Below are positions 20,741 through 37,825 of a stretch of 53,311 nucleotides of DNA, one piece after another. The stretch covers positions 1 through 53,311 of the forward strand of contig CAZCLC010000003.1 in NCBI GenBank assembly GCA_964499455.1. Direction: 5' to 3'. This stretch comes from an uncultured Candidatus Saccharibacteria bacterium (GTDB taxonomy: Bacteria > Patescibacteriota > Minisyncoccia > Phycocordibacterales > Phycocordibacteraceae). The position numbers were made by a program, and so were the translations under genes. Position 1 is the stretch's first letter; each line of letters begins with the position of its first letter. The notes under the pieces are model-generated. The model saw only the letters and a program-made list of their open reading frames with translations. It made no database searches and was not told the origin of the DNA.

Positions 20741-20841
20741 ATTGTTGTCATTATACTCCAAATGTTTAAATTGGATACAATAACAGAAAATATAGGTATT
20801 TTGCATTTTTTATAATAACCTGTTAATATCATGTGGATAGT

Positions 20842-20979
20842 ATGACAAAAAGAACGTATCAACCAAAAAAACGAAAACGTGCAAAAACACATGGATTTCT
20901 TTCACGTTCAAAAACAAAATCAGGCAGAAAGGTTATTCGTAATAGAGCAAGAAAAGGTAGAAAAGAACTTACTGTGTAA
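20842..20979 (+). CDS. rpmH: 50S ribosomal protein L34 (absent from the ORF track)
   Basis: [45 protein letters not shown]; divergent from dnaA. Confidence 0.96.
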
Positions 20980-20984
20980 ATAAT

Positions 20985-21296
20985 ATGTCAGCAGTATGTA
21001 AAATGGACAGGAATGATGTGTCCGCCCTACTGCATTCAAAAAAACCAATAAAGTCAACACATTTTTCTGTTATATGTAGTAATAAGATAAAAGGACACGC
21101 TATTATTATTGGAAAAAAAATTGAAAAACTTGCTGTTAATAGACATAAAACAAAACGACGTATATTTTCAATACTTAATACAATAAATTCTAAAAATACA
21201 GGATATATTGTTTTTGTAAAAGTAAAGATATTATCTATTCCATATAAAGATATACAAACAGAGCTACTATCACTTATAATGAAAAATATAAACTAA
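20985..21296 (+). CDS. rnpA: RNase P protein component
   Basis: IIIGKKIEKLAVNRHKTKRR variant of the RNR motif; rpmH-rnpA-yidC synteny. Confidence 0.85.
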   Translation: MSAVCKMDRNDVSALLHSKKPIKSTHFSVICSNKIKGHAIIIGKKIEKLAVNRHKTKRRIFSILNTINSKNTGYIVFVKVKILSIPYKDIQTELLSLIMKNIN

Positions 21297-21306
21297 TATT
21301 GTTTTT

Positions 21307-22050
21307 ATGATATCAAGTCTTTTTCATACCTTTTTCTATAACCCAATTTATAATTTATTGGTTATTTTAATACATATTATACCAACAGGAGATGTTGGTA
21401 TTGCTGTTATTATTATTACTATTATTATTCGTTTTATCCTCCTCCCTTTTTCTTTATCTGCTGCGCGCACACAACACGCAATGAATTTTCTCACACCTGA
21501 ATTGAATAAAATTCGTGAACAACATAAAGATAATAAACAACAACAAGCAAAAGAAACAATGGCTCTTTATAAAGCATCAAACGTAAATCCATTTTCAAGT
21601 TTTATTGTTATGTTTCTTCAGATTCCAGTACTTTTAGCACTTTATATGGTTTTCCTTTATGGTGCACTTTCTACAATTGATCCACATATTCTTTACTCAT
21701 TTGTTTCTTCACCGACAATTATATCAATGAAATTTTTAGGTATATTTAATATGGCATCAAAAAGTATTATTCTTGCAGTATTTGCTGGTATTGCACAATA
21801 TTTTCAAGCAACACTTACAATTAAACGTACTAAAACAATTCAACAAAAAGGTAAAATGAAAGATGTAAGTAATATTATGAATACACAAATAAAATATGTG
21901 TTTCCAATAATTATTGCGATTGTTGCTTACTCAACATCAGGAGCAATTGCACTTTATTTCACCACCACTAATATATTTGGTATTTTTCAAGAGAAATATC
22001 TTCAACGTTCATTAGTTAAAGTAAAAACTGTACAACAAAATAATAAATAA
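21307..22050 (+). CDS. yidC: Membrane insertase YidC/Oxa1 (short form)
   Basis: IIRFILLP, LYKASNVNP, LQIPV, ALYFTTTN. Confidence 0.92.
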   Translation: MISSLFHTFFYNPIYNLLVILIHIIPTGDVGIAVIIITIIIRFILLPFSLSAARTQHAMNFLTPELNKIREQHKDNKQQQAKETMALYKASNVNPFSSFIVMFLQIPVLLALYMVFLYGALSTIDPHILYSFVSSPTIISMKFLGIFNMASKSIILAVFAGIAQYFQATLTIKRTKTIQQKGKMKDVSNIMNTQIKYVFPIIIAIVAYSTSGAIALYFTTTNIFGIFQEKYLQRSLVKVKTVQQNNK

Positions 22051-22101: not shown

Positions 22102-23367
22102 CTAAGGCTGAAGTCTAAATGACCATAATGATCCATCTCTTTTATTTATAAACGATAGTATATGTTGTTTTGGATCAACCGAGGGAGCGATAATATCAAA
22201 CGGTTTCTTATTCTCTTTTGTAAGATTAAACAATAATTTTACATACCTATTTTTCATATTGATTTTCCATATATTATCTGTGAATGAAATTTTACCTTGG
22301 TACCAATCATCTGGGTAAGATGCTACTGGTGTTTTTTCAGGAATACCACAATATATAGCAGTATCATCTTGTGACCATACACATTTATTTGAAATAGTAG
22401 AAATTGGTAAATTAATCATTGTGTGGTTCGGTATAGATATTATTCCCATTTTTATTAAACCATCTGGACTATCATAATTTATAAGCGCCTCTGTACCGGC
22501 GTGGTTTATCAATGCAGTCAATCCTTTTTTTGGTCCAGCAACAGTAGTAAACATACCTGTCTTTTTATTTACAATAAATGCATACCCACCAATATCTGCA
22601 GACGGTTTAGTATATATGAAATAATTTTTCAAGCCCGCAAACATAACCCGTATATTTGTAAGTGGTGTTTGAAAAGCTGTATATATATTAGCAGCATCTT
22701 TTTGTGCACTTTTTATTATTGAACCATTCTCTCCAGAAGAGACCATAAGAATATTATCAGTTCCTTGTGTAAGTATTTGAGTTAATTCTTGTGGAAGGAA
22801 AAAACCACCAATTCCATTCTGTGGAAGCGCGTATGTCGCAATTTCACCATTACCAGTGTTTCCTGTGTGAGATATATAACGTACGTATACCAATGATCCG
22901 TCTGATAACCATACTGCTGAATTTATTCCTGGGATAGTTTTATTTGAAATACGCGTTTGTCTACCTGTTAAAGAATTATATTGATATATATTACCACTCT
23001 GTTGGTCTATATATTTTATAATAACTACTGCGTTAGTTAGTGTTGATGTGCTGTTATTTTTGATATCAAGAGAAAATATTGCTGGTACAACAGGGCCAGT
23101 GCTTATTTGCACAAGCCTTGCGAGTGTGTTTGTTGTACTGGTTGTAGTTCCTGTCCCATTGTTTATACTACCAGTGGTATACCTATTGTTATTAGTTATA
23201 TTTGTTGAAGAAGTATTCTCTTTTACAACTGGGAATGATGATTGTGTAGTAGTGTTTGATTTTGTAACAACAACATATGCACTATGATTTGCGAAGAATA
23301 AAACATACACACCGATTCCAATCGCAATGATGAAAAAAAAACTTATAATAATGAGTGTCTTTCGCAT
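22102..23367 (-). CDS. Membrane-anchored exported protein, probable beta-propeller; last gene of the T4SS-like cluster
   Basis: N-terminal TM, Thr/Asn linker, WLSDG and KCVWSQD blade-like motifs, YPDDWYQG. Confidence 0.65.
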   Translation of the reverse strand: MRKTLIIISFFFIIAIGIGVYVLFFANHSAYVVVTKSNTTTQSSFPVVKENTSSTNITNNNRYTTGSINNGTGTTTSTTNTLARLVQISTGPVVPAIFSLDIKNNSTSTLTNAVVIIKYIDQQSGNIYQYNSLTGRQTRISNKTIPGINSAVWLSDGSLVYVRYISHTGNTGNGEIATYALPQNGIGGFFLPQELTQILTQGTDNILMVSSGENGSIIKSAQKDAANIYTAFQTPLTNIRVMFAGLKNYFIYTKPSADIGGYAFIVNKKTGMFTTVAGPKKGLTALINHAGTEALINYDSPDGLIKMGIISIPNHTMINLPISTISNKCVWSQDDTAIYCGIPEKTPVASYPDDWYQGKISFTDNIWKINMKNRYVKLLFNLTKENKKPFDIIAPSVDPKQHILSFINKRDGSLWSFRLQP

Positions 23368-23416
23368 ATTAGGTTTATATTAAAATTGGGTTATATGTTA
23401 TACATAATAGTATTAA

Positions 23417-23989
23417 TTAAAAAACAATATTAATTGTATAAATACACACCAGATTTGGGTCTGTTGTGCTTTTACAATTATATTCAGCTATATTAGTATA
23501 ATCCTTAGCTTTTTGGCTTGAACAACCACCGCTCACTTTTATGCTCTCAACAAGTCTGGTGCCGGTAGGGATAGTTTCTTTACACAACTGTGTATTTTGA
23601 GACTGTACCGCCGGCTGTGTTATTTTGACACTGCTAGTTCCAAGTTTCATAGATAATGCTGATGGATTAATAAATTGAAAGACAACATATGGAGAAAGTA
23701 CGAGAACAAGACCAAAAATTGCCATCATTATTTTATGTCTGCCAGCTTCTTTATTAGTGACACTTGCACCACTTCCCATCCAAAGGAAACCACCCCAAAC
23801 AATCTCAAGAACAGCTAATATAACAGCAATACCAATTGCATATGTATACAAACTATTTACAAAATGAACTAATGATGTTGATGCTGCATAGTTTGTGAAT
23901 GCCGGGAAACTTGTCAACGGTGCGAATCCGCTAGTAGTGAGCATATACCGTATATTTTTTTTACTGTCTTTAAATCTAAAAATATCCAT
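23417..23989 (-). CDS. VirB2/TrbC-like T4SS pilin with Cys-containing tail
   Basis: AVLEIVWGGFLWM...AIFGLVLVLSPYVVFQFINP two-helix pilin pattern; start moved from 24100 to avoid overlap. Confidence 0.75.
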   Translation of the reverse strand: MDIFRFKDSKKNIRYMLTTSGFAPLTSFPAFTNYAASTSLVHFVNSLYTYAIGIAVILAVLEIVWGGFLWMGSGASVTNKEAGRHKIMMAIFGLVLVLSPYVVFQFINPSALSMKLGTSSVKITQPAVQSQNTQLCKETIPTGTRLVESIKVSGGCSSQKAKDYTNIAEYNCKSTTDPNLVCIYTINIVF

Positions 23990-23996
23990 AATTATA

Positions 23997-24983
23997 TTAT
24001 AAGCCAAATAACCCAAAACTACCTCCTGAATTTGATCCAAATAACAATGATAATTGTGTTTTTGCGCTCTCGTACGTTGTGTTATTTTGCGCCAAGACAC
24101 TTAAAATAGTGTTTCCACTCCCTATACCCTTAGGGCGTACAGTTAATAAATTACCTGTCTGTACATTTGTGCCGTTTAAAAACCATGTAATATTCGGATC
24201 TCCATTTTTGGTAGAAAAACCATATGGAACTGCCGCAAAAGTTGATTCTACTGAACCAATTGATTTTATAGAAGAAAGTGTATGAGTATAATTAATACCA
24301 GTGAGAGGATTATCTTTATATATATAAACAGTAGGCGTACCAGCCATTAGTGTAATCTCTCGTTGCGCAGCTCGTGTACCACGTTGGTTTTTTACTAATA
24401 CAGAGAACACCTCTTTCCTGTACGGAAGAGGAGCATTCACTAATACCGAATCATTTCCTATACCTGAAGCAGCAAGTGTTTGCCCGTTACTTTTCCAAAC
24501 ATATGAAAGAACAGAAGGATTAGTTCCGTTAGTTTGTATATTTGGTATAGCCACAAGCCGTATATTCCCTGTTGTCGGAATAGTTGGTGAACCAAGATAT
24601 CCTAAAGGTGCCGTAGCCAATGGTTCAACCACTAATGCGACGGATGCTGGATGAATAGTAATCGCTTGTTTGTATATATGCCCGTTTGACGTCACTGCTA
24701 TAACTATATACATAGGAACACCAACAGTACCAGTAGTAAATGAAATGGATTTTGATCCTGTACCGACACCAATCTTTTTCTTATTTATATAAACAGAAAA
24801 TATACTGTTAGTAGTTGAAATTGAATTACTTGAAATAGAAATTGTTGCACGTGAATATGGCTGAGGATATGTTGGTGTCAAATTGATAAAAAATGGTGTC
24901 AAATGAGTTGTTTGTGCGAATATATTATGTGGTACAACAATAAAAAATACCCCTAACACAATAATTATTAAAAACTTTTTCAT
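23997..24983 (-). CDS. Secreted beta-rich (Ig/PKD-like) protein
   Basis: Signal peptide ending IFA-Q; repeated LSYVW-x-x-NG and ITWFLNG strands. Confidence 0.65.
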   Translation of the reverse strand: MKKFLIIIVLGVFFIVVPHNIFAQTTHLTPFFINLTPTYPQPYSRATISISSNSISTTNSIFSVYINKKKIGVGTGSKSISFTTGTVGVPMYIVIAVTSNGHIYKQAITIHPASVALVVEPLATAPLGYLGSPTIPTTGNIRLVAIPNIQTNGTNPSVLSYVWKSNGQTLAASGIGNDSVLVNAPLPYRKEVFSVLVKNQRGTRAAQREITLMAGTPTVYIYKDNPLTGINYTHTLSSIKSIGSVESTFAAVPYGFSTKNGDPNITWFLNGTNVQTGNLLTVRPKGIGSGNTILSVLAQNNTTYESAKTQLSLLFGSNSGGSFGLFGL

Positions 24984-25078
24984 ATTATTAAGTATAACGC
25001 ATTAAGTGTATTTATAGCGAGTATTATTTCAATCTGTACTAATCTTTTTTAATAAATAAAATCATAGATACTTTGTTA

Positions 25079-25678
25079 TTATTGTGTTACAAATTGCTGT
25101 GATAGCAATCTTTGTTGTCTGTTATATGCGAGCAATCTTTTTTTATACTGTAAAAAAGCATCTCTATCGTCTTCCATAACTGTCATAATAATGATAGTAA
25201 TACCTATAAGTAGTGATGGTATTATATTTATAAAAGGAATAAGACCAACAATAAGACTTATAACCGCTGCCACTAAGCGTTTTCTTGATCTCGTGTCCAA
25301 AAATGATATGCCTGCTATAGTGAACCAAAAGTAAAATAACATCCACGCGAAAAAATCGATTGCATCAGATAAAATATCACCGACAAAACCAATAACTGCC
25401 GAACCGATACCAGTGAAAATTTCAGCGCCTCCTACAGCTAAGGCTGCTACCGCGCCACCAGCTACACCAAGTGCCTCCGATACACCACTACCTAAAAAGG
25501 ATGTTTTATTTGTTATATATACACTAGTTATTCCACCAATAAGTAATGGTGCTGTTATAAAAAATATTGAGAATATAAAAATAAATATACTGAAGAAAAA
25601 CGCCACACTAAACATAAGAACTGCGCGAGTAATGGGCATTTTTCTTGTTGGTGGTTTTGGCTGTAATAATTGCTTCAT
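25079..25678 (-). CDS. Hypothetical polytopic membrane protein
   Basis: Several TM helices, Gly/Ala-rich, GLIPFINIIP motif; coupled to virB4. Confidence 0.7.
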   Translation of the reverse strand: MKQLLQPKPPTRKMPITRAVLMFSVAFFFSIFIFIFSIFFITAPLLIGGITSVYITNKTSFLGSGVSEALGVAGGAVAALAVGGAEIFTGIGSAVIGFVGDILSDAIDFFAWMLFYFWFTIAGISFLDTRSRKRLVAAVISLIVGLIPFINIIPSLLIGITIIIMTVMEDDRDAFLQYKKRLLAYNRQQRLLSQQFVTQ

Positions 25679-25684
25679 ATTATC

Positions 25685-27517
25685 CTAATGTTGTTTTTCT
25701 TGCTCTGCGTCAAAACGGTTTTTTTCTTTACTTATAGATAGAAGTTGTGAAGGATCTGAAGTGATAATTTGATCTTCAGTATAGGAAGCTACGATTTTAA
25801 TTGCCACATGTTTTAATCCTGCAAAAAACAATCCTTCACCAACGCCAGACTCTAAAAGTAAATATTTTTCCTCATCCGTGAGGTTAAATGTTTTTTGCAG
25901 TAGATCAACTGTTGTTGGGGATTGTTTAAGCAGAATCTGCAATGATGAGTTTGTAAGAATAGGTTTTCCATATGGTGAGCGCAAGAAATCTTCAACATCT
26001 TGCGTAATAGTGGCAACACCAAGATAGTATTTTCGTCCGCGCTTAGCAATAGAATACAAAAACGATGCGGTATCTTCTGATTTCATCATCCACCACGCCT
26101 CATCAATAACAAGTAATCGCTTTTTTAAATTATGTCGTACAACATTCCAAATATGTCTAGAAATTATATACATAGCTACTGGCTTAAGCTCGTCTTCCAT
26201 ATCACGAACGGAAAAGACAATAAATTGTCGATTAATATCAATATTGGTTGGTTTATTAATAAAACCGGACCATGAACCACGTGTGTATTTCGCAAGACGT
26301 TCTACAAGCGAATCACTTCCCTCCATACCTATCAATACTGTTTCAAAATCTGCAAGAAGTGGTGGTTCAGTATTTGAAAAATCAGTTTCTCCAGTGATAT
26401 TTTTTAGGGCGTAAGTTTCAGCAATTGCACGATCTACAATAGAATCTTCCTCGGGACTAAGCCCGCCGAGCATAATTCTAAATAGACCAACCAAAGTAAT
26501 AATATTGTTACGTAAAATATCCTTCGGATCCTCGTCCTCTTTAACTGGCGGTAGATCAAATGGATTGATATGATGTTCAGAAGAAAGTGAGATGTTGAAA
26601 GAGCGACCATCGGTTGCCTCTGCAAGTTGTTCATATTCTCGTTCAGGATCAATAACAATCACATCAGTACCAAACATAAGAGAACGCAAAATCTCAAGCT
26701 TAGCAGCATATGATTTTCCAGAACCGGATTTTGCAAAGAATACTGAGTTATAGTTTTCTAGAGAGAATCGATCAAAAAGAATTAATGAAGCATTATGCCG
26801 ATTTATGCCATAGAGAATACCGCGATCACTAGTCAGATCAAATGATGTGAACGGAAAAATAGAAGAAAGTGGTTCAGTGTTTAATTTTGATTCAACCATA
26901 AGTTCATCATTTTCAAGCGGTAGTATTGTACGAAACCCTTGTTCCTGCTGAAAAAGTGCCGGCTTTGTATAAATTAATTGTGCGTCTAAAATACTGCGGA
27001 TACTTATCTCAGTTTTACTTAACTCTTCTTTTGAGTCTCCATATATTGTTATATATAACCCAACATCAAAAAGACGCTCCCTAGCTTGTTGAAGCCGATC
27101 ACGTAGCATCTCCAGGTTTTGATATGCGGCATCAAGTTTTGGATCTCGTACTAACCCATGATGCTCTCTTTCGTTTATTTGACTCTGTACATCTGCAACT
27201 TTTTTCTGAAAGTTATGAAGCGCTTCCTCAGTATCAATAGGGTGTATAAAAATGGAAACGTCAAGTACTTTATCAAGATTAATAATAGGAGAAAACCATC
27301 CATCACTTAAAAACGCCGGGTATGACACGGTATAAAATGTACGAGCAAATTTTTCATTAAGTGATATTTCTTTAGAACCTATTTTTAAAGCAGTCGGTGC
27401 AATTGTATCAATAAGATTTAATTTATTCTGCGTATAAATATTCCCAGGTAGAACATTAGAAAAATCTAATGCCCCTCGCTCTTTTTTATTTTTATTGAAG
27501 AAATTAAAAAGTGACAT
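25685..27517 (-). CDS. virB4: VirB4/TraC-like T4SS ATPase
   Basis: GILYGIN, AKSGSGKS Walker A, IDPEREY, INPFD, LLVIDEAW Walker B, KRGRKY, TITQD. Confidence 0.88.
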   Translation of the reverse strand: MSLFNFFNKNKKERGALDFSNVLPGNIYTQNKLNLIDTIAPTALKIGSKEISLNEKFARTFYTVSYPAFLSDGWFSPIINLDKVLDVSIFIHPIDTEEALHNFQKKVADVQSQINEREHHGLVRDPKLDAAYQNLEMLRDRLQQARERLFDVGLYITIYGDSKEELSKTEISIRSILDAQLIYTKPALFQQEQGFRTILPLENDELMVESKLNTEPLSSIFPFTSFDLTSDRGILYGINRHNASLILFDRFSLENYNSVFFAKSGSGKSYAAKLEILRSLMFGTDVIVIDPEREYEQLAEATDGRSFNISLSSEHHINPFDLPPVKEDEDPKDILRNNIITLVGLFRIMLGGLSPEEDSIVDRAIAETYALKNITGETDFSNTEPPLLADFETVLIGMEGSDSLVERLAKYTRGSWSGFINKPTNIDINRQFIVFSVRDMEDELKPVAMYIISRHIWNVVRHNLKKRLLVIDEAWWMMKSEDTASFLYSIAKRGRKYYLGVATITQDVEDFLRSPYGKPILTNSSLQILLKQSPTTVDLLQKTFNLTDEEKYLLLESGVGEGLFFAGLKHVAIKIVASYTEDQIITSDPSQLLSISKEKNRFDAEQEKQH

Positions 27518-27523
27518 AATTTT

Positions 27524-28171
27524 TTATGAAAGACGAATAGGGTCTTCTATCTCACCAGGGTTAAATGACCTGAAGAAAAGCTCAATAAGTTCTTCTGTAC
27601 CGAGTGAAATAGTACGTACTCCTGTTGTCGATATACTTGATGCAACTAACGCCATTCGTTCTTGCAGTTGTGTACGTGCCTCTTTAAATATCTCTTCACT
27701 ACCAGTTGTCTGTTCACTAACCTTATTTTTATTATGACTGACAAATCCTGAAAATAAATGTTGTGCAGCTTCTGTGCTATTTTGCGAATAAGGAACAACA
27801 ATATAAAATGATTTAGTCATAATGTTGGTGTTTTCCGTAAAAGTTTTAATAAATGACATATATTCCCGTAACTGAATACGCAATAGTTCTGTTTGTTGTT
27901 TCTTCTTTTTTTCCTCTAAAAGAGAAAGATATGGACGAATATCAATTTTACGTGACTGCACCACTATTTGTATAGAAAAATCAAGAGTGTTAAGAAATGT
28001 TTGAAATCCACTGATAATAGCATTTTGTTCATTGGAAGATTTCAATTCAAAATTAATTGATGAGCACATCAAAACCCCACGATACCCTCCGTTTTTAAGT
28101 ATAATAACTCCTTCACGAATATCTTTAATCGGAACGAAGTTTTGTGCTGATGTTGCATTTGTTGTAGACAT
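27524..28171 (-). CDS. VirB4-associated conjugation-type protein
   Basis: SINFELKS, FLNTLDFSIQI and KSFYIVVPY resemble the protein usually found between PrgI and VirB4. Confidence 0.65.
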   Translation of the reverse strand: MSTTNATSAQNFVPIKDIREGVIILKNGGYRGVLMCSSINFELKSSNEQNAIISGFQTFLNTLDFSIQIVVQSRKIDIRPYLSLLEEKKKKQQTELLRIQLREYMSFIKTFTENTNIMTKSFYIVVPYSQNSTEAAQHLFSGFVSHNKNKVSEQTTGSEEIFKEARTQLQERMALVASSISTTGVRTISLGTEELIELFFRSFNPGEIEDPIRLS

Positions 28172-28177
28172 AATAAA

Positions 28178-28591
28178 TTACATTTGAGTATTTTCTGGTA
28201 TACGTGCGACATCAAGTGATCCTGCAAGCTCGCGTAATTTACTTCGTGTAAGCCTAACAACACGTACTGGCGTCTTTTTTTCGTGTACTGCTGTTGGTTG
28301 TGATTTTACAGATGTATATTTTTTCCATAGGAAAAAGCGTGAGGATGTATAATATTTAATTGCTGCTTCAACAGTATGTTCGAACGGTTTATTATTTATT
28401 TTATAGAACGCTAACGCACTGGCAAAACCGACTGTTGGTATTCCTAACAAAACCGCAATAAAAAACGGCAGATAACGTAATAATAAAAAAAGCAATCCGA
28501 TACCGCCTGCTATATAAACAAATTGTTTAAGAGTGAGCGGACCGATGATTTTACTCTCCATTTCAATAAATTGTGGTACTTGATGCTCCAT
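28178..28591 (-). CDS. PrgI-family (VirB3-like) membrane protein
   Basis: QVPQFIEMESKIIGPLTLKQF followed by two TM helices and INNKPF. Confidence 0.82.
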   Translation of the reverse strand: MEHQVPQFIEMESKIIGPLTLKQFVYIAGGIGLLFLLLRYLPFFIAVLLGIPTVGFASALAFYKINNKPFEHTVEAAIKYYTSSRFFLWKKYTSVKSQPTAVHEKKTPVRVVRLTRSKLRELAGSLDVARIPENTQM

Positions 28592-28652
28592 GTATATATT
28601 AGTATATCTGAAAAATGATACACTGTCTGTGCTGTTTTCCACTTAGTTGGCG

Positions 28653-29162
28653 TCACACTAACGGTTCTCTGTAAGGATCAGCAGTATATTTTTCCACGAT
28701 TGGTTTTTTAGGTGGTGTAGGAATACTCTGAATTGTTGAATGTTCTGGATATGGTGGTTGTTGAGTTGGTTTTTTAATATCCTGAATAGGATGCTGTATT
28801 TTCATTTGTTCTCGCAGTGGTGAAAACACCATTATTTCTATATCATGCATAATGTTATCTACGTTATTTTTATCAAAGCCGTTATTTATCAATACATCGG
28901 ATACTTCTTGAGGGTTCTCCACCCCGATAAGCATAAGAAGTAGCTCATTTTCAAGTACTGCAGATTGTTTTGTTTGAAGCTCATATCGTTGTGCGAGTGT
29001 TGTAGCGACGACTACATATTTTTTTTCTAACAAAAAACCTTTAACTTCTTCAGGTACATTATCTATAAACGCTCGCAGGCTTTCTTGTAGCGTTGGCACC
29101 TTTTTTGAATCTACATCAGTATAGGTATCTTGGTGTTTGGAAGTTTTTTGTGGTGTATTCAT
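28653..29162 (-). CDS. Hypothetical protein with Pro-rich tail and terminal DPYREP motif
   Basis: 169 aa ORF inside the T4SS-like cluster. Confidence 0.7.
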   Translation of the reverse strand: MNTPQKTSKHQDTYTDVDSKKVPTLQESLRAFIDNVPEEVKGFLLEKKYVVVATTLAQRYELQTKQSAVLENELLLMLIGVENPQEVSDVLINNGFDKNNVDNIMHDIEIMVFSPLREQMKIQHPIQDIKKPTQQPPYPEHSTIQSIPTPPKKPIVEKYTADPYREPLV

Positions 29163-29200
29163 AGATGTTTATTTATAACTTTTTAAAATATATCGTAGAC

Positions 29201-31126
29201 TTATGAATCTTGTTCAGAAATATCTTTTTTATCTTTCGCGGACTCTTTGAGTATTTTTTCAATCGTATCAACAAACTTTTCTTTATCATCTTTTGTTGCA
29301 TCCTTAATAATCTTTTTTGCTACGTCTTTACGCCATTTACTACCGTACATACCAAGACCATAACTAAGTTCTCGCATGTTCTTTGCATATAATATCTGGG
29401 GGAAGTTTTTTGATTCACGTTCTTTCATTTCGGATGTCTTTTTTGCAACATTTGCTTCACGCTTTGTTTGTTCGGTAGTAAATTGTTTATTAACATCCTC
29501 AGTTTGTTTTGTTTGCTGATTTATTATATCGTTCTTCTGTGTTTGCAATGTTTGCAGATCTTGCTTGAGTTCAGCTAAGTCATTAGGTGATTTTATAAAA
29601 GTAGAATTAATGGAATCTTCTATTTCTTTAATTTTAGTATCTATTTTTTTAAGTTCAGCGTCACTGTCTTCATTTATTTTCTCTATAGTATTATCAAACT
29701 TTTCTTTTTCGTTTGTGTTTATGTCTTGAAGTATCGTTACCCCTTCTTTCATTCGTTCCGTCTCTTCCTTATCTGCTTTTGTAGGTCTGAGACTCTTCGA
29801 ATATTCCTCAGTTTTCTTAATCTTCTCTTCTTCTGCGCCTCTATACCCTCCTGTTTTTGTTTTTCCCGCACCAATTCCTAACGCACTAAGTCCACCACCA
29901 ATCTTTGTGGCACGTACATCAAAACTTGATTTTGCTGCCCTATCCAACATATCGCCACCAATTCTTCCAAATACCGCACTTCTCCCAATTTTTGAGCTTC
30001 TCCATTTTTCAGAAAGACGTTGACCACTCCATCCGATTGTTTTCTGACCTAACCATCCTACCTGACCAAATGTTGCTCGCCCGCTTATTTTGGTTGCGAA
30101 ACCAGCTGCTTTATTAGATAAACTTTTTGCTACAATGAGAGATACAATAAGTAAACCAATTATAACGGAAAAAGTTAAAAGTAATCCTGACATTGATGTC
30201 GTACCTGGACTGCTCACAGCCGTCCCGTAATTTACTCCGCCAGTAATTGAACTAACAAATGTGCTTTGTGCCATTTTTGTTACCACAAGAAGAAATAATA
30301 ATAATACAGGAGCTAATATTGTTTGGCTTGCAAGAACATGCCACCATTTTTTTCCATAAGAGCTTATAAGTGGTATGCCGGCAAGACCGATGAAACCGAT
30401 AGGTGAAACAATTAAGAGAAACAGTAACACTACAAATCTGGAAATAAGCATGATTGCAATAGCTCCAAATACAAATGCCAATATGAGAAACATAATAATT
30501 CCCAGCAATGCGATCTCTACTTTTTGTCCTGCAGGGAGCTTCGCATTTACTGTACTATATATACTACTTGTTTTTACTGCAGTCATTACTGCGTTTGATA
30601 TTGGCTCAGGGCTTGCGTTAAATGATGTTGGGATAGAGCCACCGTTTATTTGTGCATAAAATTGCGTCGCAAACACATTTCCAGTATCAACGATAAATTC
30701 GGTAAAAAATAGTGAAAAATTCAGTAGTATGGCAACGAGAAGCAGTTTTGGTAATACTTTTTTTGCTCCATAGGTTACATTATCAAGTATCGTTGCGATA
30801 CCGATGGCGATAAAACCAAATACAAGCAAAATGTTTCCAAGGTCGCGGAATAAAGCCCATGCTGTTTGTAGACTTCCAATATCCTTAATATAATATCCCA
30901 TGCGAACAACAGTGTAATACATCGATGCTCCCATAAGTGTTGCTGCAAATTCTACAAGCCAATGGAAAGGTGTCATGAGCATAAGAAGCATATCTGACAG
31001 AATTCCAGGTGAACTGGTATTAGACGCAAATACAAATGAAGTTGGGAACACAATAAATATGAACATTAATACAATTAATGTTGTCAGCTTTTTTTGTGTA
31101 AAATATTTCTGTAAATATATAAGCAT
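29201..31126 (-). CDS. VirB6/TrbL-like polytopic membrane protein with C-terminal coiled coil
   Basis: WALFRDLGN, AILLNFSLF, RFVVLLFLLIVSPIGF, WW motif, about 7 TM, charged coiled-coil tail. Confidence 0.72.
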   Translation of the reverse strand: MLIYLQKYFTQKKLTTLIVLMFIFIVFPTSFVFASNTSSPGILSDMLLMLMTPFHWLVEFAATLMGASMYYTVVRMGYYIKDIGSLQTAWALFRDLGNILLVFGFIAIGIATILDNVTYGAKKVLPKLLLVAILLNFSLFFTEFIVDTGNVFATQFYAQINGGSIPTSFNASPEPISNAVMTAVKTSSIYSTVNAKLPAGQKVEIALLGIIMFLILAFVFGAIAIMLISRFVVLLFLLIVSPIGFIGLAGIPLISSYGKKWWHVLASQTILAPVLLLFLLVVTKMAQSTFVSSITGGVNYGTAVSSPGTTSMSGLLLTFSVIIGLLIVSLIVAKSLSNKAAGFATKISGRATFGQVGWLGQKTIGWSGQRLSEKWRSSKIGRSAVFGRIGGDMLDRAAKSSFDVRATKIGGGLSALGIGAGKTKTGGYRGAEEEKIKKTEEYSKSLRPTKADKEETERMKEGVTILQDINTNEKEKFDNTIEKINEDSDAELKKIDTKIKEIEDSINSTFIKSPNDLAELKQDLQTLQTQKNDIINQQTKQTEDVNKQFTTEQTKREANVAKKTSEMKERESKNFPQILYAKNMRELSYGLGMYGSKWRKDVAKKIIKDATKDDKEKFVDTIEKILKESAKDKKDISEQDS

Positions 31127-31137
31127 ATATTATTCTT

Positions 31138-32703
31138 CTATGAACCACCCCAGTTATTTGAATTAGACGAATTCAAATTATTGATACACTGCTGCACTTG
31201 TGTTTGTAGTACTTGAAGTTCAAGGTTTGCACTTTGTGCAATTTTGTTCATAGTACCAACAGTTGTTGTCATACCTTCAAATGATAGACTATTAGTCTGC
31301 GCTTGTGAGATTTGTTGTACCGTTGGTAATGTACCGTCCGTAATTATTTTTTGAAATTCTGCGCCAACTGCCGCTATTGATGTTGCAGACCCACTGTTTA
31401 TCGCAACTTGTGCATTAGATTTTATTTGTTCAAGTTTAATAAGCCCGGTTCTCGCTGATGTGATAGATACTTGTGTCTCCGAATACTTAATGATAACACC
31501 ATTAAGAGATGCTTTTGCGGTTACAATATTTGAGTATGGTACAGGACACGAGCTGTTTGGTGATGTGTAGTTAATCAATGAGCGTAGAGCATTTTCTGCA
31601 CGACTTTCTGAACTAAGAATCTTTTGTAGGTTTGATATATATTGATGTATGTTACTCTCTTTACGGTTTATAGCATTTTGTAAAGATGTGTTTATTTGGC
31701 TAAGGCTTCCTGTTGGAGTTCCGTTTTTGTATTGACTGATATAAGATGAACTGCCTCCTTGAGACAGAGATGCTATACCAAGTAATCCACCCCCACTTCC
31801 ACCTCCTATTGCTTTTGAAACAAGGTTTTGTGCGAGATTACCTATAATTTCACTAATTTCATCAGCAGATACAAGAGAGCTAATTCCTGAGCCAAGAGCT
31901 TTATCAAGCTGTGCTTTAATTACACTACCAGGTGTTTGTATAGAACAGCTTGTACCATCACTATTACAGTTTGTTTTAGACAAAAAGCCTTGTGCCCAAT
32001 TTGCTTCTACCACTTTGTTTGTTTGAGCATTTGATACACTTGTATTAAGTGCGTTATTTGCTCCCTCGTATGCATAGTATGGATTATTGTTACTGTTTGC
32101 ATTTATTGCTTTCCATCCATTCCATCCACCTGCACCGAAGTCTCCATTGAGGAAAGCGTGCGTGTTTGGTACTGTATTAGACAGTGTTTCGGTGTGTGCA
32201 GACCAATAATTAGAAGCTGTATTTTTAGTGTATGTAGTATTTACAGCATTTGCGATAGTTCTATTATAAGATTGAGAGTATGATGAACCGGTTCCTGCGC
32301 CAGTAACAAATCTGTTTTCAGCAAAATCACCGGTTTGCCCGATATATTTTTTAAGATTGGTCACAAAGCCAGGTCCACTAGTACCGTTTTGGTTAATATG
32401 ATGTTCTGCGATATTTGTTACAAGATCGCTTGTGATTGATCGTAATGTAGATTTTGCTATTATCCACGCAATAGGGTCAAGTGCATACTCTTTTGTAACA
32501 AGTGACGCGGTAAGAATATTTCCAGCTACGATTTTAATGCCATTAATAATTGTTTTTGCCACTACTGTCGGGTCAAGTACAATACCCAAAAATGCATACA
32601 CTGGTCTTGGCGCGGAAACAAACATACCACCAGCAAGAATAAGAAGCATGCTTATTCCTATTAATGTACGCTTGGCATCTTGTTGTAAATTATGTACACT
32701 CAT
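31138..32703 (-). CDS. Secreted Asn/Ser/Gly-rich helical protein (possible VirB5/TrbJ-like)
   Basis: Signal peptide ending VYA-F; VLDP, KEYALDPIAW and QTPGS; adjacent to the VirB6-like gene. Confidence 0.55.
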   Translation of the reverse strand: MSVHNLQQDAKRTLIGISMLLILAGGMFVSAPRPVYAFLGIVLDPTVVAKTIINGIKIVAGNILTASLVTKEYALDPIAWIIAKSTLRSITSDLVTNIAEHHINQNGTSGPGFVTNLKKYIGQTGDFAENRFVTGAGTGSSYSQSYNRTIANAVNTTYTKNTASNYWSAHTETLSNTVPNTHAFLNGDFGAGGWNGWKAINANSNNNPYYAYEGANNALNTSVSNAQTNKVVEANWAQGFLSKTNCNSDGTSCSIQTPGSVIKAQLDKALGSGISSLVSADEISEIIGNLAQNLVSKAIGGGSGGGLLGIASLSQGGSSSYISQYKNGTPTGSLSQINTSLQNAINRKESNIHQYISNLQKILSSESRAENALRSLINYTSPNSSCPVPYSNIVTAKASLNGVIIKYSETQVSITSARTGLIKLEQIKSNAQVAINSGSATSIAAVGAEFQKIITDGTLPTVQQISQAQTNSLSFEGMTTTVGTMNKIAQSANLELQVLQTQVQQCINNLNSSNSNNWGGS

Positions 32704-33767
32704 AGTTTTTGTTGTTGCTGTGTTGCAGTTATTTCATCCATTAGATTTACAAATGATGCTCCAGGATCTCCAGGCTTAAGCACTACTCCAGAAGAACGAA
32801 ATACATCACCCATATCGGTAAACGCCTGAGCAAGTGCCAATGCACTTTTTTTATATTGAGAAAGAGCAAGCATAGTAATAATTGGGTCGGTATTTATTTT
32901 TGCAAGATTATTTATTACACTTGCCATACTCGCGTAAGCATTAATCATTTCAAGATGTGCTTGTACGACTTCTGTTGGAACTGTCATTTGTGCCAACGCA
33001 GCCGCTGCAGCACTACAGATATCAGCGATTGCTTGAATATGTGCAACTGCCGATGTATTAGAATTTTGTGCTGCTTCTTGTAAATATATAAGCACGCCTT
33101 TATCTTGTGATATTGTATGTTTAGAAAATGCCTGTTGCACTCCCGCAGCATACGCGCGCATTGCGGCCGTACCTGACCCACCTATTTTAATTTGAGAAAG
33201 TGTGCGATATGGTGTCGGTGCAGTTACTTGATTATTTAGCTGCAACATAGTTTGTTTTACAACTTCAGTGAGTTGCTGTTTTGAAAGCGCTGACCCTCTA
33301 TTTAATTCTTTTTGTGCTAAGTATATAGAAAAGAAATTTTTCGCAAATATATCTGTAAGAGATCCTTGTGTTGGCACAGGACCATATCCAGTATTGTCGG
33401 CTTTTACTGTTGTTGATGTAGCCGTCTTCGGTAGAGTAAATGCTTTCGGTACTATAAGACCTTTTGCAACAGCTTCCCCATCTGTCATACCAAGTCCGAA
33501 TGTATCTGCTTTATACGGATTTGTTCCATATAACGCTTCTTCCCAATTTGGTAACCCGTCGTGGTCGCTATCTTTATTTGCTAAGGTTTGCAAAAGAGTA
33601 TCGGTAGAGATTGCATCTGCGTGATTAGTAGATAATCCACCGTTTCCTAAAATATACGCACCAACAATAACAACACAGGCAAATAATATTGCCGACACTA
33701 TACCCCATTGTCGTGTTATCCAAGTCACGGTATATATAAGTATACCAAGACAAACAACAATAAGCAC
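32700..33767 (-). CDS. Membrane-anchored protein with a TSP3-like Ca-binding repeat
   Basis: DSDHDGLPNWEEALYGTNP...DTFGLGMTDGEAV; start uncertain (GTG). Confidence 0.7.
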   Translation of the reverse strand: MLIVVCLGILIYTVTWITRQWGIVSAILFACVVIVGAYILGNGGLSTNHADAISTDTLLQTLANKDSDHDGLPNWEEALYGTNPYKADTFGLGMTDGEAVAKGLIVPKAFTLPKTATSTTVKADNTGYGPVPTQGSLTDIFAKNFFSIYLAQKELNRGSALSKQQLTEVVKQTMLQLNNQVTAPTPYRTLSQIKIGGSGTAAMRAYAAGVQQAFSKHTISQDKGVLIYLQEAAQNSNTSAVAHIQAIADICSAAAAALAQMTVPTEVVQAHLEMINAYASMASVINNLAKINTDPIITMLALSQYKKSALALAQAFTDMGDVFRSSGVVLKPGDPGASFVNLMDEITATQQQQKL

Positions 33768-33776
33768 ACGATAATA

Positions 33777-34574
33777 TTAGGTTGGGTGTGTATTAATATT
33801 TGTTATAAAATATTGAGTGAGTTCGTACCATTTTTTAACAGAAACATCTTCCGCTCGTATGTTTGGTGCGATGCCAGTAGCGGAAAGTGCACTTTCCGCT
33901 ACTGTGAGGTCTCTAATTCCAGCCAGATTACTTACTAATTTTTTACGCTTATGAGAAAATCCCGCGTGTATAATATCAAAAAAATATTTTGCTTCACGTT
34001 CATTTGAAAATGGAGAATGTATATTTCGTATTGAAAGTACAGCAGAATCAACTGTTGGAGCAGGTAAAAACGCCCCGCGCGGTACAGTGAATTCATAATG
34101 CGGATTACCATATACCTTTACTGAAATAGACAAAATGCTTTCTTTTTTTGATCGCGCAATACGTTCGGCGACTTCCTTTTGTACTAAAAGGACCATACGT
34201 TGTGGACGGCACATTGTTTCAAGGAATAATCGTAATATGTTACTTGTTAGATAATATGGTATGTTAGCCACTAATATATATGGTTTAGATATTACACACG
34301 GAACAAAAGTACGAATATCTTGATGTTGAACATTAAGTACTCCGCGCGAAATTGCCACAGTGAATTTTTTATCAAGAACATTTATAAGATTCTTGTCCGT
34401 TTCAAGCGCAAGAACATATCCAGCTTTTTCAATAAGCGCTTTTGTAAGTATTCCAGTACCTGGTCCTATTTCTACAACAGTATCGTTTAGAGTAATTTTT
34501 GCTGTATCAACAATACGCTCCGCAATATGCTTATGCAAAAGAAAATGTTGCCCAAGTGATTTTTTTGCATGCAT
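33777..34574 (-). CDS. rsmA: 16S rRNA dimethyladenosine transferase RsmA/KsgA
   Basis: AKKSLGQHFL, EIGPGTG, VANIPY, QKEVAER, FLPAPTVDSA. Confidence 0.96.
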   Translation of the reverse strand: MHAKKSLGQHFLLHKHIAERIVDTAKITLNDTVVEIGPGTGILTKALIEKAGYVLALETDKNLINVLDKKFTVAISRGVLNVQHQDIRTFVPCVISKPYILVANIPYYLTSNILRLFLETMCRPQRMVLLVQKEVAERIARSKKESILSISVKVYGNPHYEFTVPRGAFLPAPTVDSAVLSIRNIHSPFSNEREAKYFFDIIHAGFSHKRKKLVSNLAGIRDLTVAESALSATGIAPNIRAEDVSVKKWYELTQYFITNINTHPT

Positions 34575-34578
34575 AACA

Positions 34579-36486
34579 TTATGAATATATTATCTGTTCA
34601 TTTATACGCGTATCATACTTCATAGATGTAATATTCATGTCTTGAATAAAAGATGATGGTTTCTGTGCATAATCGGTACCGTATATGCGTCTAACTTGCG
34701 CAAGAGTTAATACAAGTCGCCGTTTTGCACGCGTTATCGCAACATAGCAAAGGCGTCGCTCCTCCTCTTCATCACGTACTTCATTTCCAACACGTTCGTG
34801 AGGAAATAATCCTTCTTCCATTCCAGTTATAAACACTGTATCAAATTCAAGCCCTTTTGCTGCATGCACTGTCATAATAACTACTCCTGATGTTTGTGTG
34901 TGTCTATCAAGTTCATCTTGGTCACTTGCCAAAGCTGCGTCTGTCAAAAAATCTGAAATACTATTTTTCCCGGGAGTTGCATCATAACGGCTAGCAAGGG
35001 TTGCAAGCTCGCGCATATTTTCAAGTCTTTCCTGTCCATCTTTCCCTTCCAGTAGGCATTTTGCTTGTAGTCCGCTTTCTTCTATTACTAATTGTACAAA
35101 AAGAGACGGAGTAAGTTTCTCAGCTTCATGCGCGAATTTTTCAATTAGACGTTCAAAAAAATCAATACACCTACGTTCTCTTAGATTAAGTGAATCTCGT
35201 TGACCAGAGAGCATCTTTCCGAGCGTTATTTTACCGATACCGCGTGGTGGTGATTGTACAGCACGAATACGGTCAACCTCAATATCCGGATCAAGTGTAA
35301 TACGTATCCATGAAAGAACATCCTTCACTTCTTTTCGTTCAAAAAATTTAGTTCCAATAAGTCGATAAGGTATTCCAGCACGAAGCAATCCTTCTTCAAG
35401 AGCTCGCGATTGGAAATTCGCGCGAAACAATATTGCAATATTTTCCGGAAGAATACCGCTTCGCAGTTCTTTTTGTATTTCTTGTGCTATCCATAAAGCC
35501 TCTTTATCCTCTGTTGCAGCTATATATGTTGTAATTGGCAGTCCAATAGGATTATCAGTGACAGAATTTTTTTCTTTTCTATTTTTATTGTGTGCAATAA
35601 GAGCATTTGCTGCATTGATAATCGTTTTTGAAGAACGGTAGTTGTACTCAAGTATTATAGTTTTTGCATCTGGATATGTATCTTCAAATGAAAGTAAATT
35701 TTTTATTGTTGCACCGCGCCATGTATAAATTGTTTGGTCAATATCTCCTACAACAAAGATATTTCTATGTTTTGCAGCTATTGTTGTTGCAATAAATCCC
35801 TGTGTTTCGTTTGTATCCTGATATTCATCTATATGTACATATCTAAATTGTTCTTGTACGGCATGTCGTACATCCTCATGTTCTTTAAGCATCCGCGCGG
35901 GAAGAACAATAAGGTCTTCAAAATCAAGTGCTTTTTGTTTGCGTAGAGCTGACTCATATTGTGGCCATACATTTTCAATTACTCGCGCCTGAAAGCTTTT
36001 GTGATCATCTTTCTCTAAAAATTCCTCTATAGAAACACTAGATCCTTTTGCTTTTGCAATTTGAGAGAGAACACCACGTGGTGGTACTTCTTTAGGATTA
36101 ATACTAAGAGATTCAAGTATTTTTTTTATCATTCGTTCGGAATCTTTACGGTTAACTATAACTGTGTGACGTGGTATTCCAATGGTGTTACCATATTTTT
36201 CAAGTAATATTCTCCCAAAGCCATGAAAAGTTACTACAAGTGGCGAATGTTCACGTTGCATATTTTCTATGCCAATACGTTCACGCATTTCGCGCGCCGC
36301 CTTATTAGTAAATGTTACAGCAAGGATGTTTTCTGCTGGTACATTTTTTTCTTCCAAAAGATACTGCATACGCGTAGTTAAAACGCGTGTCTTTCCAGAA
36401 CCGGCACCCGCAAGAACTGCTACTGGCCCTTCTGTAGTTAGAACCGCCTCCTTTTGTCTCTCGTTTAATTTTTCTAAAGAAAACAT
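34579..36486 (-). CDS. pcrA: UvrD/PcrA helicase
   Basis: AGAGSGKT, TFTNKAA, DEYQD, VGDIDQTIY, NYRS, MTVHAAKGLEF, EERRLCYVAITRA. Confidence 0.93.
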   Translation of the reverse strand: MFSLEKLNERQKEAVLTTEGPVAVLAGAGSGKTRVLTTRMQYLLEEKNVPAENILAVTFTNKAAREMRERIGIENMQREHSPLVVTFHGFGRILLEKYGNTIGIPRHTVIVNRKDSERMIKKILESLSINPKEVPPRGVLSQIAKAKGSSVSIEEFLEKDDHKSFQARVIENVWPQYESALRKQKALDFEDLIVLPARMLKEHEDVRHAVQEQFRYVHIDEYQDTNETQGFIATTIAAKHRNIFVVGDIDQTIYTWRGATIKNLLSFEDTYPDAKTIILEYNYRSSKTIINAANALIAHNKNRKEKNSVTDNPIGLPITTYIAATEDKEALWIAQEIQKELRSGILPENIAILFRANFQSRALEEGLLRAGIPYRLIGTKFFERKEVKDVLSWIRITLDPDIEVDRIRAVQSPPRGIGKITLGKMLSGQRDSLNLRERRCIDFFERLIEKFAHEAEKLTPSLFVQLVIEESGLQAKCLLEGKDGQERLENMRELATLASRYDATPGKNSISDFLTDAALASDQDELDRHTQTSGVVIMTVHAAKGLEFDTVFITGMEEGLFPHERVGNEVRDEEEERRLCYVAITRAKRRLVLTLAQVRRIYGTDYAQKPSSFIQDMNITSMKYDTRINEQIIYS

Positions 36487-36643: not shown

Positions 36644-37825
36644 ATGGATGATTTACCGAATGCCATCAATTTACTTATTTTGCCAACTACACATACCTCC
36701 GTCGAACATTATACAAAGTATCGTTGGAGTGCATATAAAACACCGATTACCGTTATTGGAGTAGTAGTGGTTATTTGTATTTTCATAGCTATTCCAAGAA
36801 ACACTAATGCGTTTTGGTTTTTTCAAAATGCTACGACATACGCACAGGGTATAAATAGTGTTCCAGCATCTTTTAATACAGATATAACAACACTACATGC
36901 GGCAACTAACAGCAATCCTCATGCAGGATCAAATGAAATTGCAATAGCAATAACAGGTAACGCAGCTATTTTAGGAAATGTTAATCCAGAAAGTACATCA
37001 TTTAATAAAATTACTACTCATCCGACAGACGGGCAGATTTCTCTTTACGTGGTTCGTCCGGGTGACTCGCTTTCGGAAATAGCACAAATGTTTGGTGTGT
37101 CCGTAAATACTATTTTGTGGGCGAATAATATTACTGACAGAAACATTATAAAGCCAGGTATGACACTAACTATTCTGCCAATTTCTGGAATACGACACAT
37201 AATTAAAAAAGGAGAAACACTTGCCTCAGTAGCAAAAAGATATCATGGAAACATAAACGATATCGCTTTGTATAATAATATCTCCCCAAACGCCGTGATT
37301 ACTCCTGGTACAACCATACTTATTCCTGGTGGAGAGATGATAGTGGTACCACATACTGTAATTTCCAGAAAGTATTATCATATCACACACGCACCGTCTA
37401 ATCCGTATCGTGGAGGTAGTGGTCCAGTAATTCCAGATTTCTTTGGTAATCCATTACCGGGTGGAATTATCACTCAAGGCTTACATGGTTGGAACGCTGT
37501 TGATATAGGGGCACCGATGTGGACACGAATTCACGCAGCTGCTCCAGGAACAGTTATTATATCGCATGTCGGTGGATGGAATGGCGGGTATGGAAATTAC
37601 GTCGTTATTGATCATGGAAACGGTACACAAACGCTATATGCTCATATGGTACGTGATATATCGCATGTTGGTGAAAGAGTTTCTCGTGGTGAAGTAATCG
37701 GATATGTTGGTATGACTGGCGAAGCGACCGGACCACATTTACATTTTGAAGTACGCGGTGCTTACAATCCGTTCGTATCATGTTCTGTTGGAAGAGCATG
37801 TTATCCAAAAATGCTCGCACACTAA
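36644..37825 (+). CDS. 2x LysM plus M23 peptidoglycan endopeptidase
   Basis: YVVRPGDSLSEIA and HIIKKGETLASVA LysM domains; HGWNAVD, YAH and GPHLHFEV M23 motifs; start uncertain. Confidence 0.92.
   Translation: MDDLPNAINLLILPTTHTSVEHYTKYRWSAYKTPITVIGVVVVICIFIAIPRNTNAFWFFQNATTYAQGINSVPASFNTDITTLHAATNSNPHAGSNEIAIAITGNAAILGNVNPESTSFNKITTHPTDGQISLYVVRPGDSLSEIAQMFGVSVNTILWANNITDRNIIKPGMTLTILPISGIRHIIKKGETLASVAKRYHGNINDIALYNNISPNAVITPGTTILIPGGEMIVVPHTVISRKYYHITHAPSNPYRGGSGPVIPDFFGNPLPGGIITQGLHGWNAVDIGAPMWTRIHAAAPGTVIISHVGGWNGGYGNYVVIDHGNGTQTLYAHMVRDISHVGERVSRGEVIGYVGMTGEATGPHLHFEVRGAYNPFVSCSVGRACYPKMLAH

Follow-up and report, generated by a model that had tools for sequence, protein, structure and literature searches.

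Type IV secretion systems (T4SS) of Patescibacteria were the subject of a survey by Quinonero-Coronel et al. (2025, PMC12102498); in the parts of that survey which are drawn on here and below, VirB4 proteins of Patescibacteria form a monophyletic clade nested in MPF_FATA. TrsD was the most abundant component associated with these systems, which also contained PrgI, VirB6 and VirB2-like pilins; relaxases were rare, homologues of type IV coupling proteins (T4CP) were usually located far from virB4, and pilin arrays occurred. Loci of Paceibacteria were situated near dnaA, dnaN, rnpA, ksgA and rpmH, with KsgA close to virB4; VirB1 homologues containing M23/LysM domains were mentioned, and most genes neighbouring virB4 were unnamed (grey in the legend of Fig. 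6). Here, a cluster of this kind is described, which consists of 13 genes at positions 22102–36486 of the window, i.e., the whole stretch of 53,311 nucleotides that was analysed (contig CAZCLC010000003.1 of assembly GCA_964499455.1).

With respect to function, a T4SS together with its pilin array was essential for epibiotic growth and co-culture of Southlakia, according to the portions of Wang et al. (2023, PMC10633639) considered here. A possible pilus conduit has been discussed in passages of a review of 2025 (PMC12857230) and of a preprint of 2026 (bioRxiv 10.64898/2026.06.21.733656); the latter describes, for a cultivated relative, tube-like structures at the interface of parasite and host, which its authors suggest to be T4SS pili.

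With a probability of about 0.85, the cluster in the window represents a vertically inherited, chromosomal T4SS of the Patescibacteria clade in a Paceibacteria (Kaiserbacteria-like) genome; as a part of this reading, the system would derive from the conjugation machinery of Gram-positive bacteria (MPF_FATA), whose DNA-processing genes would have been lost. This reading proceeds from the identities of the genes, their conservation and synteny, and the missing mobility genes. The genome comprises 566,873 bp in 32 contigs, of which the window is C3, and has a completeness score of 96.5%. All 13 open reading frames (ORFs) of the cluster are located on the minus strand (Table 1) and their spacing ranges from an overlap of 4 nt to a gap of 95 nt, which is compatible with a single long operon; the GC content resembles that of the flanks. 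A first-pass annotation, made from the sequence alone, had described 13 tightly packed minus-strand genes adjacent to the origin, and the ORF calls yielded exactly the same coordinates; yidC and rnpA (both on the plus strand) directly adjoin the cluster on its downstream side and are followed by dnaA and dnaN. The names pcrA, rsmA, PrgI, VirB4 and VirB2-like pilin, which had been given at that stage, were borne out by Pfam and NCBIfam matches.

The VirB4 protein matched the NCBIfam family conju_CD1110 (NF045971) with 388.9 bits (cutoff 325; E 4.6e-116). Its Walker A and Walker B motifs are intact, GSGKS and DEAW being invariant in the alignment of orthologues; a match to the family NF045975 from Mycoplasma integrated conjugative elements (ICE) was also found (E 1.2e-78, under the curated cutoff). 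PrgI, which has two transmembrane helices, was recognized by PF12666 (37.8 bits, cutoff 27; E 2.8e-9). The 215-amino-acid protein encoded between prgI and virB4 aligned with positions 2–165 of conju_CD1110 (E 2e-9) and with the TrsD family NF041427 (E 2.9e-7; 30.5 bits, far under the cutoff of 200). Thus, it is a separately encoded homologue of the VirB4 N-terminal domain, and its gene was an ORF separate from virB4 in all 40 related loci inspected (20/20 in each of two sets). This protein had been annotated as a partner of VirB4; the relationship to VirB4 holds, but it does not represent a new subunit, since TrsD-like homologues of this domain have been published.

The pilin was identified with PF18895 (35.2 bits, cutoff 26.6; E 1.3e-8) and PF04956 (E 1.2e-4); it contains transmembrane helices at residues 88–106 and 126–144 and a C-terminal extension with Cys, and translation probably begins in fact at an internal ATG near 23989 or 23941. 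A match to NF045849, a pilin-like family of Mycoplasma ICE (E 2.7e-4), was under the curated cutoff. Altogether seven genes for PF18895 pilins were present in the genome, the cluster copy and six elsewhere, namely three in tandem on contig C6 (23643–24486), two in tandem on C17 (3125–3749) and one on C15 (6579–6764). The product of g641, a gene upstream of prgI, is regarded as putatively VirB6-like; about six transmembrane helices are predicted in it, and its C-terminal tail is long and charged.

Among 41 relatives from the genus and order, 39 possess VirB4 (69–86% identity), and in a sample of 121 genomes from the class it was detected in 117 (52–73%). Identities to VirB4 of Paceibacteria genomes and metagenome-assembled genomes (MAGs) range from 52 to 86%. 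Gene neighbourhoods were compared in three sets of loci. In the first, 20 loci of about 19.8 kb around virB4 were searched by tblastn; prgI, trsD, virB4, g421, yidC and dnaA were detected in 20/20 loci each, g328 and the pilin gene in 19/20 each, and the order prgI-trsD-virB4-...-g421, followed by yidC and dnaA, was the same in all 20. The second set comprised 80 loci from MAGs titled Kaiserbacteria, Paceibacterota, Parcubacteria or Nomurabacteria, some of which share genomes with the first 20, and showed the same order. Where the downstream sequence reached 8 kb or more (58 loci), g421 and yidC were present in 58 each, dnaA in 56, dnaN in 54, the pilin gene in 52 and g328 in 47; where 9.5 kb or more were available upstream (53 loci), trsD and prgI were found in 53 each, g641 in 36, g355 in 31, rsmA in 28, g521 in 24, pcrA in 22 and g169 in 9. 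Finally, 20 class-level loci were scanned with profile hidden Markov models built from the orthologues, which detected trsD and virB4 in 20 loci each, prgI and g641 in 18 each, g169, g421 and rsmA in 15 each, g355 (adjoining the VirB6-like gene) and the pilin gene in 14 each, g521 in 12, g328 in 11 and pcrA in 10, the last number being partly limited by the flank fetched. The same order of 13 genes was seen in class-level families. Thus, the cluster is not strain-variable, and its accessory genes co-occur with virB4 in loci of the genus, the order and the class.

It was also observed that many MAG records titled "uncultured Candidatus Saccharibacteria" contain a VirB4 with 68–81% identity and a gene order of the Paceibacteria type; therefore, these record titles look unreliable.

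The descent of several components (CD1110-type VirB4, PrgI, TrsD) from Gram-positive conjugation systems could suggest an ICE or the recent remnant of one. Its position beside dnaA and yidC is, however, kept throughout the genus, the order and the class, and VirB4 is conserved to the extent given above. Housekeeping genes border the cluster on both sides, its GC content is flank-like, and no att-like direct repeats were found around it. The sole tyrosine recombinase of the window has a domain pair of the Xer type and lies 7.8 kb beyond pcrA, without any integrase nearer. Relaxase families PF03432, PF01076, PF03389 and PF02486 had no match in the genome, and relaxase, VirD4 and VirB11 were all missing from the cluster, so that Pfam scans and the repeat search agree with the lack of relaxase, VirD4, VirB11, integrase and att site that had been noticed before. 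Because of the conserved synteny, the lack of a relaxase and the lack of att-like repeats, the explanation as an ICE was rejected as extremely improbable; the cluster is not mobile.

The first-pass annotation had considered the local lack of VirD4 as notable. The gene is indeed missing from the cluster, but this is the norm in published systems, and a VirD4-like ATPase is encoded elsewhere. While the coupling-protein families PF02534 and PF10412 had no match in the genome, PF12696 (TraG-D_C) matched a 926-amino-acid ORF on contig C2 (45613–48393), which adjoins ftsH, contains DUF87 and TraG-D_C domains and is followed by a 755-amino-acid ORF without a family match. Matches of this ATPase to TraD and to CD1115 VirD4-like families were weak and all far under the cutoffs. 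It was present in 41/41 relatives (42–69% identity); a second paralogue of about 600 amino acids occurs in most relatives and was not found in this genome. Taken together, the conserved synteny, the lack of a relaxase and the co-occurrence of the accessory genes support the original interpretation, a domesticated, non-mobile, chromosomal T4SS-like machine of Patescibacteria, with the corrections mentioned here, and this interpretation agrees with what is reported in the relevant parts of PMC12102498 and PMC10633639.

Eight of the 20 loci of the first set, all from the same genus, gave no match upstream of prgI, while g641 was still present in 39/41 relatives. In such split genomes g641 is located 40–70 kb from virB4; for example, in a genome consisting of a single contig, it was found at 704–706 kb and virB4 at 774.5 kb. 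Six of the distant regions were examined, and in each the series pcrA-rsmA-g355-g521-g641-g169 was intact, with an M23 peptidase in five; the break lies between g169 and prgI. In three genomes, where both halves could be placed on one contig, the series from pcrA to g169 was 40–70 kb away and inverted. Since it is intact at distant sites, the locus consists of two modules: module A is pcrA-rsmA-g355-g521-VirB6-like gene-g169, and module B is prgI-trsD-virB4-small membrane protein gene-g328-pilin gene-g421, which keeps its place next to yidC and dnaA. In the window both modules are contiguous, an arrangement that is probably ancestral for the class, since it was also seen in class-level loci.

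That pcrA and rsmA remain with the VirB6-like gene in 6/6 split loci as well could be taken as a trace of nucleic acid import. In such a machine, whose principle would resemble that of ComB or Ced, the pilus and VirB4 would draw in host DNA or RNA and PcrA would process the strands. The lack of a relaxase and of an adjacent coupling protein would fit such a function; VirB4 and the T4CP-like protein gave weak NCBIfam matches to CedB and CedD of archaeal DNA import, but these were far under the cutoffs and confined to the P-loop region. Feeding on host RNA has been proposed in the preprint cited above (bioRxiv 10.64898/2026.06.21.733656), in the part that deals with tube-like structures as possible T4SS pili; on the other hand, loss of comEC in Southlakia abolished competence, not viability, according to the section of PMC12857230 on this subject. 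PcrA and KsgA are ordinary housekeeping proteins, and KsgA near virB4 is listed among the origin-proximal neighbours in the portion of PMC12102498 concerned. An import machine of this type, in which the link with PcrA would acquire a function, is judged unlikely. The earlier remark that pcrA and rsmA are co-oriented with the cluster is correct, but pcrA, the first gene of the block and one of the genome's two genes of the UvrD family, is probably a housekeeping neighbour, and rsmA looks like one as well.

Among the accessory proteins, that of g421 has the most confident structure. An AlphaFold2 model from an alignment of 85 sequences (pLDDT 88.2, pTM 0.80) consists of a transmembrane helix (residues 2–28), a disordered linker rich in Ser, Thr and Asn, and an all-beta domain (residues 85–418); two Cys are invariant in the alignment. 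The best Foldseek matches were G-beta, the WDR domain of DCAF1 (WD40), oligogalacturonate lyase and tricorn (E about 4e-10), with target-normalised TM scores of 0.5–0.6 for chains of propeller size and 0.12 for the 1023-residue chain of tricorn. The protein is thus, as modelled and at the level of the fold, a membrane-anchored extracytoplasmic seven-bladed beta-propeller; the first annotation had called it propeller-like. Pfam repeats were found in 0/20 orthologues, PD40 occurred in 13% of the members of one cluster of look-alikes, and a profile search against PDB sequences gave no significant match. In a phylum-wide profile search, 44 of 81 "hits" were obtained, which mostly covered the N-terminal transmembrane helix alone; matches of the propeller domain at E ≤ 1e-15 were present in 14/77 genomes of other classes.

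The g355 protein has an N-terminal membrane anchor, a Ca-binding motif of the TSP3 type (DSDxDGLPDWEE) and then a helical domain. Its TSP3 repeat, which had been named from the sequence, is weak in the window's copy (18.6 bits, under the cutoff), but TSP3_bac was detected in 9/16 orthologues, in three of them above the cutoff. The g521 protein possesses a signal peptide, a conserved N-terminal domain with the motifs GFxGxPxFV, QNNPY, WGxGFLSW and TPGSVI, Gly-rich linkers and a long C-terminal helical bundle, for which alone (residues 334–515) the AlphaFold2 model was confident (mean pLDDT of the whole 55.7). Fold searches (Foldseek, VIA-align wide) retrieved only generic helical bundles (best Z 10.8), and no significant match was obtained with its profile against PDB sequences. 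An N-terminal motif resembling DUF4141, a family which we take to be linked to VirB5-like proteins, was noted in two orthologues, in one as a match of 24 residues and weakly in the second; g521 is a tentative candidate for a pilus-tip protein of the VirB5/TrbJ type.

The g169 protein, which is probably cytoplasmic since no transmembrane helix is predicted, contains a helical N-terminal domain, a Pro-rich linker whose length varies several-fold, and the C-terminal motif DPYRE(P). DPYRE was invariant in 10/10 close orthologues, and most of the 31 orthologues from the class level had it as well; in a six-frame translation of the genome it occurred once, in g169. A literature search for this motif returned nothing relevant, no Pfam domain was found in any of nine orthologues, and 43 database homologues were all unnamed and without Pfam domains. 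The DPYRE terminus looks like a candidate docking peptide. The product of g199, with four predicted transmembrane helices, is poorly conserved in sequence, and a small ORF with at least two such helices directly followed virB4 in 27/40 loci. For g328, which has a signal or anchor helix, an Ig-like protein had been proposed; only weak BiPBP_C matches in 2/19 orthologues were found. Its look-alikes in the ESM Atlas were all unnamed clusters, most commonly from the phylum Minisyncoccota, the nearest named one being PKD at 0.76, so that an Ig/PKD-like reading is only a lead. Approximately seven unassigned genes had been put forward as candidates for novel subunits; about six conserved, unnamed partners are counted here.

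Several of these products, i.e., the propeller, the TSP3 motif and the secreted proteins, look like modules for surfaces or adhesion, and the VirB2-like pilin with its six paralogues suggests a surface filament with variable subunits. A pilus that serves solely for attachment to the host, without transport through it, would explain such an inventory. Adhesion could, however, be provided by the type IV pilus genes in the window (Table 1), and the presence of the T4CP-like ATPase in 41/41 relatives suggests handling of substrates; an adhesive function alone is consequently considered quite unlikely.

The favoured reading is that of a Patescibacteria-clade T4SS. For its assembly and the roles of the accessory proteins, we infer the following from the established biology of T4SS. 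The VirB4 ATPase would work with the separately encoded TrsD-like N-terminal domain, and PrgI/VirB3 would tether VirB4 to the membrane at the VirB6-like polytopic channel protein; VirB4 could then power the extraction of the VirB2-like pilin and its assembly into a tube or pilus that crosses the cell wall. The TSP3 protein, the secreted helical protein, the small polytopic protein, g328 and the propeller may form or decorate the extracytoplasmic part; the neighbouring LysM-M23 hydrolase may open the wall, and the distal VirD4-like ATPase may feed or recruit substrates. The machine would most likely serve contact with host cells and exchange of macromolecules rather than conjugation. To our knowledge, the T4SS of Patescibacteria is the only one reported as essential for the growth of its bearer.

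Several results weigh against this reading. A scan of the locus for promoters and terminators gave no signal above shuffled controls, and the split of 40–70 kb in part of the genus means that strict co-transcription is not required. PF04610 (TrbL/VirB6) matched g641 orthologues in 4/18 cases below the threshold (E 2e-5 to 5e-4), the hhalign comparison of g641 with PrgH of pCF10 was marginal (E 0.025, probability 2%), and its profile had no significant match among PDB sequences. No VirB8-like or VirB1-like protein was recognized inside the cluster by Pfam, NCBIfam and hhalign, and conserved synteny is the only tie between the accessory proteins and the machine. A more far-reaching variant, in which Paceibacteria would have rebuilt the periphery of a T4SS of the Gram-positive type, both outside and inside the membrane, with subunits of their own (the propeller, the TSP3 protein, g521, g328 and g169) that replace VirB1, VirB8 and the adhesin, with the DPYRE peptide of g169 docking on one of the ATPases and PcrA handling imported host nucleic acid, is tentative and seems rather doubtful. 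If the accessory proteins are true subunits, they would show a conjugation machine rebuilt for an epibiotic lifestyle. The natural split into two modules could guide studies of operons and interactions.

Table 1. Features of the cluster and of the remaining window (aa, amino acids).
Feature	Positions	Strand	Evidence or remark
N-methyl pseudopilin/T2SSG-like protein	3179..3688		type IV pilus part
235-aa ORF	7990..8697		no Pfam match; weak holA-like NCBIfam match
PilB-like T2SSE ATPase	11548..13218		MshEN domain; type IV pilus part
YebC/TACO1-family ORF, 186 aa	14512..15072		Pfam model matched in two pieces
ruvC	15008..15529		
Origin-region flank	18014..22050	dnaN -, dnaA -, rnpA +, yidC +	
dnaN	18014..19117	-	
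dnaA	19373..20806	-	
g421, membrane-anchored seven-bladed beta-propeller (modelled)	22102..23367	-	AlphaFold2, Foldseek
VirB2-like T4SS pilin	23417..24100	-	PF18895, PF04956
g328, secreted or anchored protein	23997..24983	-	signal/anchor helix
g199, small polytopic membrane protein	25079..25678	-	4 predicted transmembrane helices
virB4 ATPase (CD1110/MPF_FATA type)	25685..27517	-	NF045971
trsD-like gene	27524..28171	-	conju_CD1110 positions 2-165; TrsD NF041427
prgI (VirB3-like)	28178..28642	-	PF12666
g169, DPYRE-motif protein	28653..29162	-	alignments
g641, VirB6-like polytopic protein	29201..31126	-	transmembrane prediction; sub-threshold PF04610
g521, secreted helical protein	31138..32703	-	signal peptide, alignment, AlphaFold2 model
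g355, TSP3-motif anchored protein	32700..33767	-	transmembrane prediction; TSP3_bac in orthologues
rsmA/ksgA, 16S rRNA adenine dimethylase, 265 aa	33777..34574	-	PF00398 (RrnaAD) E 4e-48
pcrA, UvrD/PcrA helicase, 635 aa	34579..36486	-	PF00580 E 3e-80; PF13361 E 3e-67
LysM + Peptidase_M23 cell-wall hydrolase	36644..37825	+	PF01551 E 1e-26; PF01476 E 6e-26
567-aa ORF	41386..43089		no Pfam match
Tyrosine recombinase	44262..45155		Xer-type domain pair

On the upstream side, the gene for the LysM-M23 hydrolase is divergent from pcrA, and murA and other housekeeping genes follow on the same side; the hydrolase is a candidate for a wall-remodelling partner of the VirB1 type. Elsewhere in the window, the ORF of the YebC/TACO1 family is short, and about 65 nt of it are shared with the start of ruvC; a frameshift or an artefact of the start codon may be the cause. 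Two further ORFs had no Pfam match (Table 1).

Of the known systems, those of the Mycoplasma ICE likewise pair a pilin-like protein (Mbov_0395) with a VirB4 (Mbov_0397) in a wall-less/monoderm lineage, but their transfer genes are located on mobile ICE, and the proteins described here score under the cutoffs of those families. In the staphylococcal Trs system of pGO1/pSK41 (TrsD and TrsE), the N-terminal domain of VirB4 is also encoded by a separate small gene; that system differs in that it resides on plasmids, is conjugative and includes a relaxase and a coupling protein. The prototype of MPF_FATA, Prg/Pcf of the Enterococcus plasmid pCF10, has a corresponding order of VirB6-like protein (PrgH; here the putative g641), PrgI and VirB4 (PrgJ, CD1110 family), but it contains a VirB4 encoded by a single gene, the hydrolase PrgK, a VirB8-like PrgL, an adjacent VirD4-like PcfC and a relaxase, and no pilin. 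Comparisons by hhalign showed no similarity between the profile of g328 and PrgL, nor between the profile of g169 and a pCF10 ORF which we take to be PrgG. The connection of TrsD with the Trs system has been made also in PMC12102498.

The locus of Southlakia epibionticum ML1 (SEML1_0006–0019), as far as it is presented in the portions of PMC10633639 used, also contains VirB4, PrgI, a VirB6-like protein (putative in the present cluster) and PF18895 pilins, a hypothetical gene beside virB4 in the position of TrsD and, as here, no recognizable relaxase or coupling protein. This locus of a member of the Saccharimonadia differs by a phage-tail-lysozyme/glucosaminidase protein, an NTF2-like (VirB8-like) protein and an array of six pilins, whereas the cluster in the window has one pilin and six elsewhere in the genome, and its own TSP3 protein, g521, g169, g328 and propeller. 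In the portion of the supplement of PMC10633639 used for comparison, the word "propeller" stood only in rows not related to the T4SS, e.g., for DNA gyrase.

The closest counterpart is the Patescibacteria-clade T4SS, which, in the sections of PMC12102498 concerned, shares with the present locus a VirB4 of the MPF_FATA type, TrsD as a separate protein, PrgI/VirB3 and VirB2-like pilins, together with a VirB6-like protein that is putative here, as well as the lack of a relaxase, a distant T4CP and the position at dnaA, dnaN, rnpA and ksgA. There is no essential difference from the loci as described in those sections, except that here six neighbours are conserved partners and one of them is modelled as a seven-bladed propeller. 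Thus, the cluster matches the published system and is to be regarded as an already known one; it leaves the existing picture unchanged and provides a compact example from Paceibacteria with clean boundaries. What is added is a class-wide set of about six unnamed accessory proteins, one with a confident fold, although Tables S3/S4 of PMC12102498 may already list these families; furthermore, the layout in two modules, split by 40–70 kb in part of the genus, and a protein whose C-terminal DPYRE motif is strongly conserved. The novelty is accordingly low with respect to the system and modest with respect to the catalogue of accessory genes, which supplies six conserved unnamed partner genes next to a known machine.

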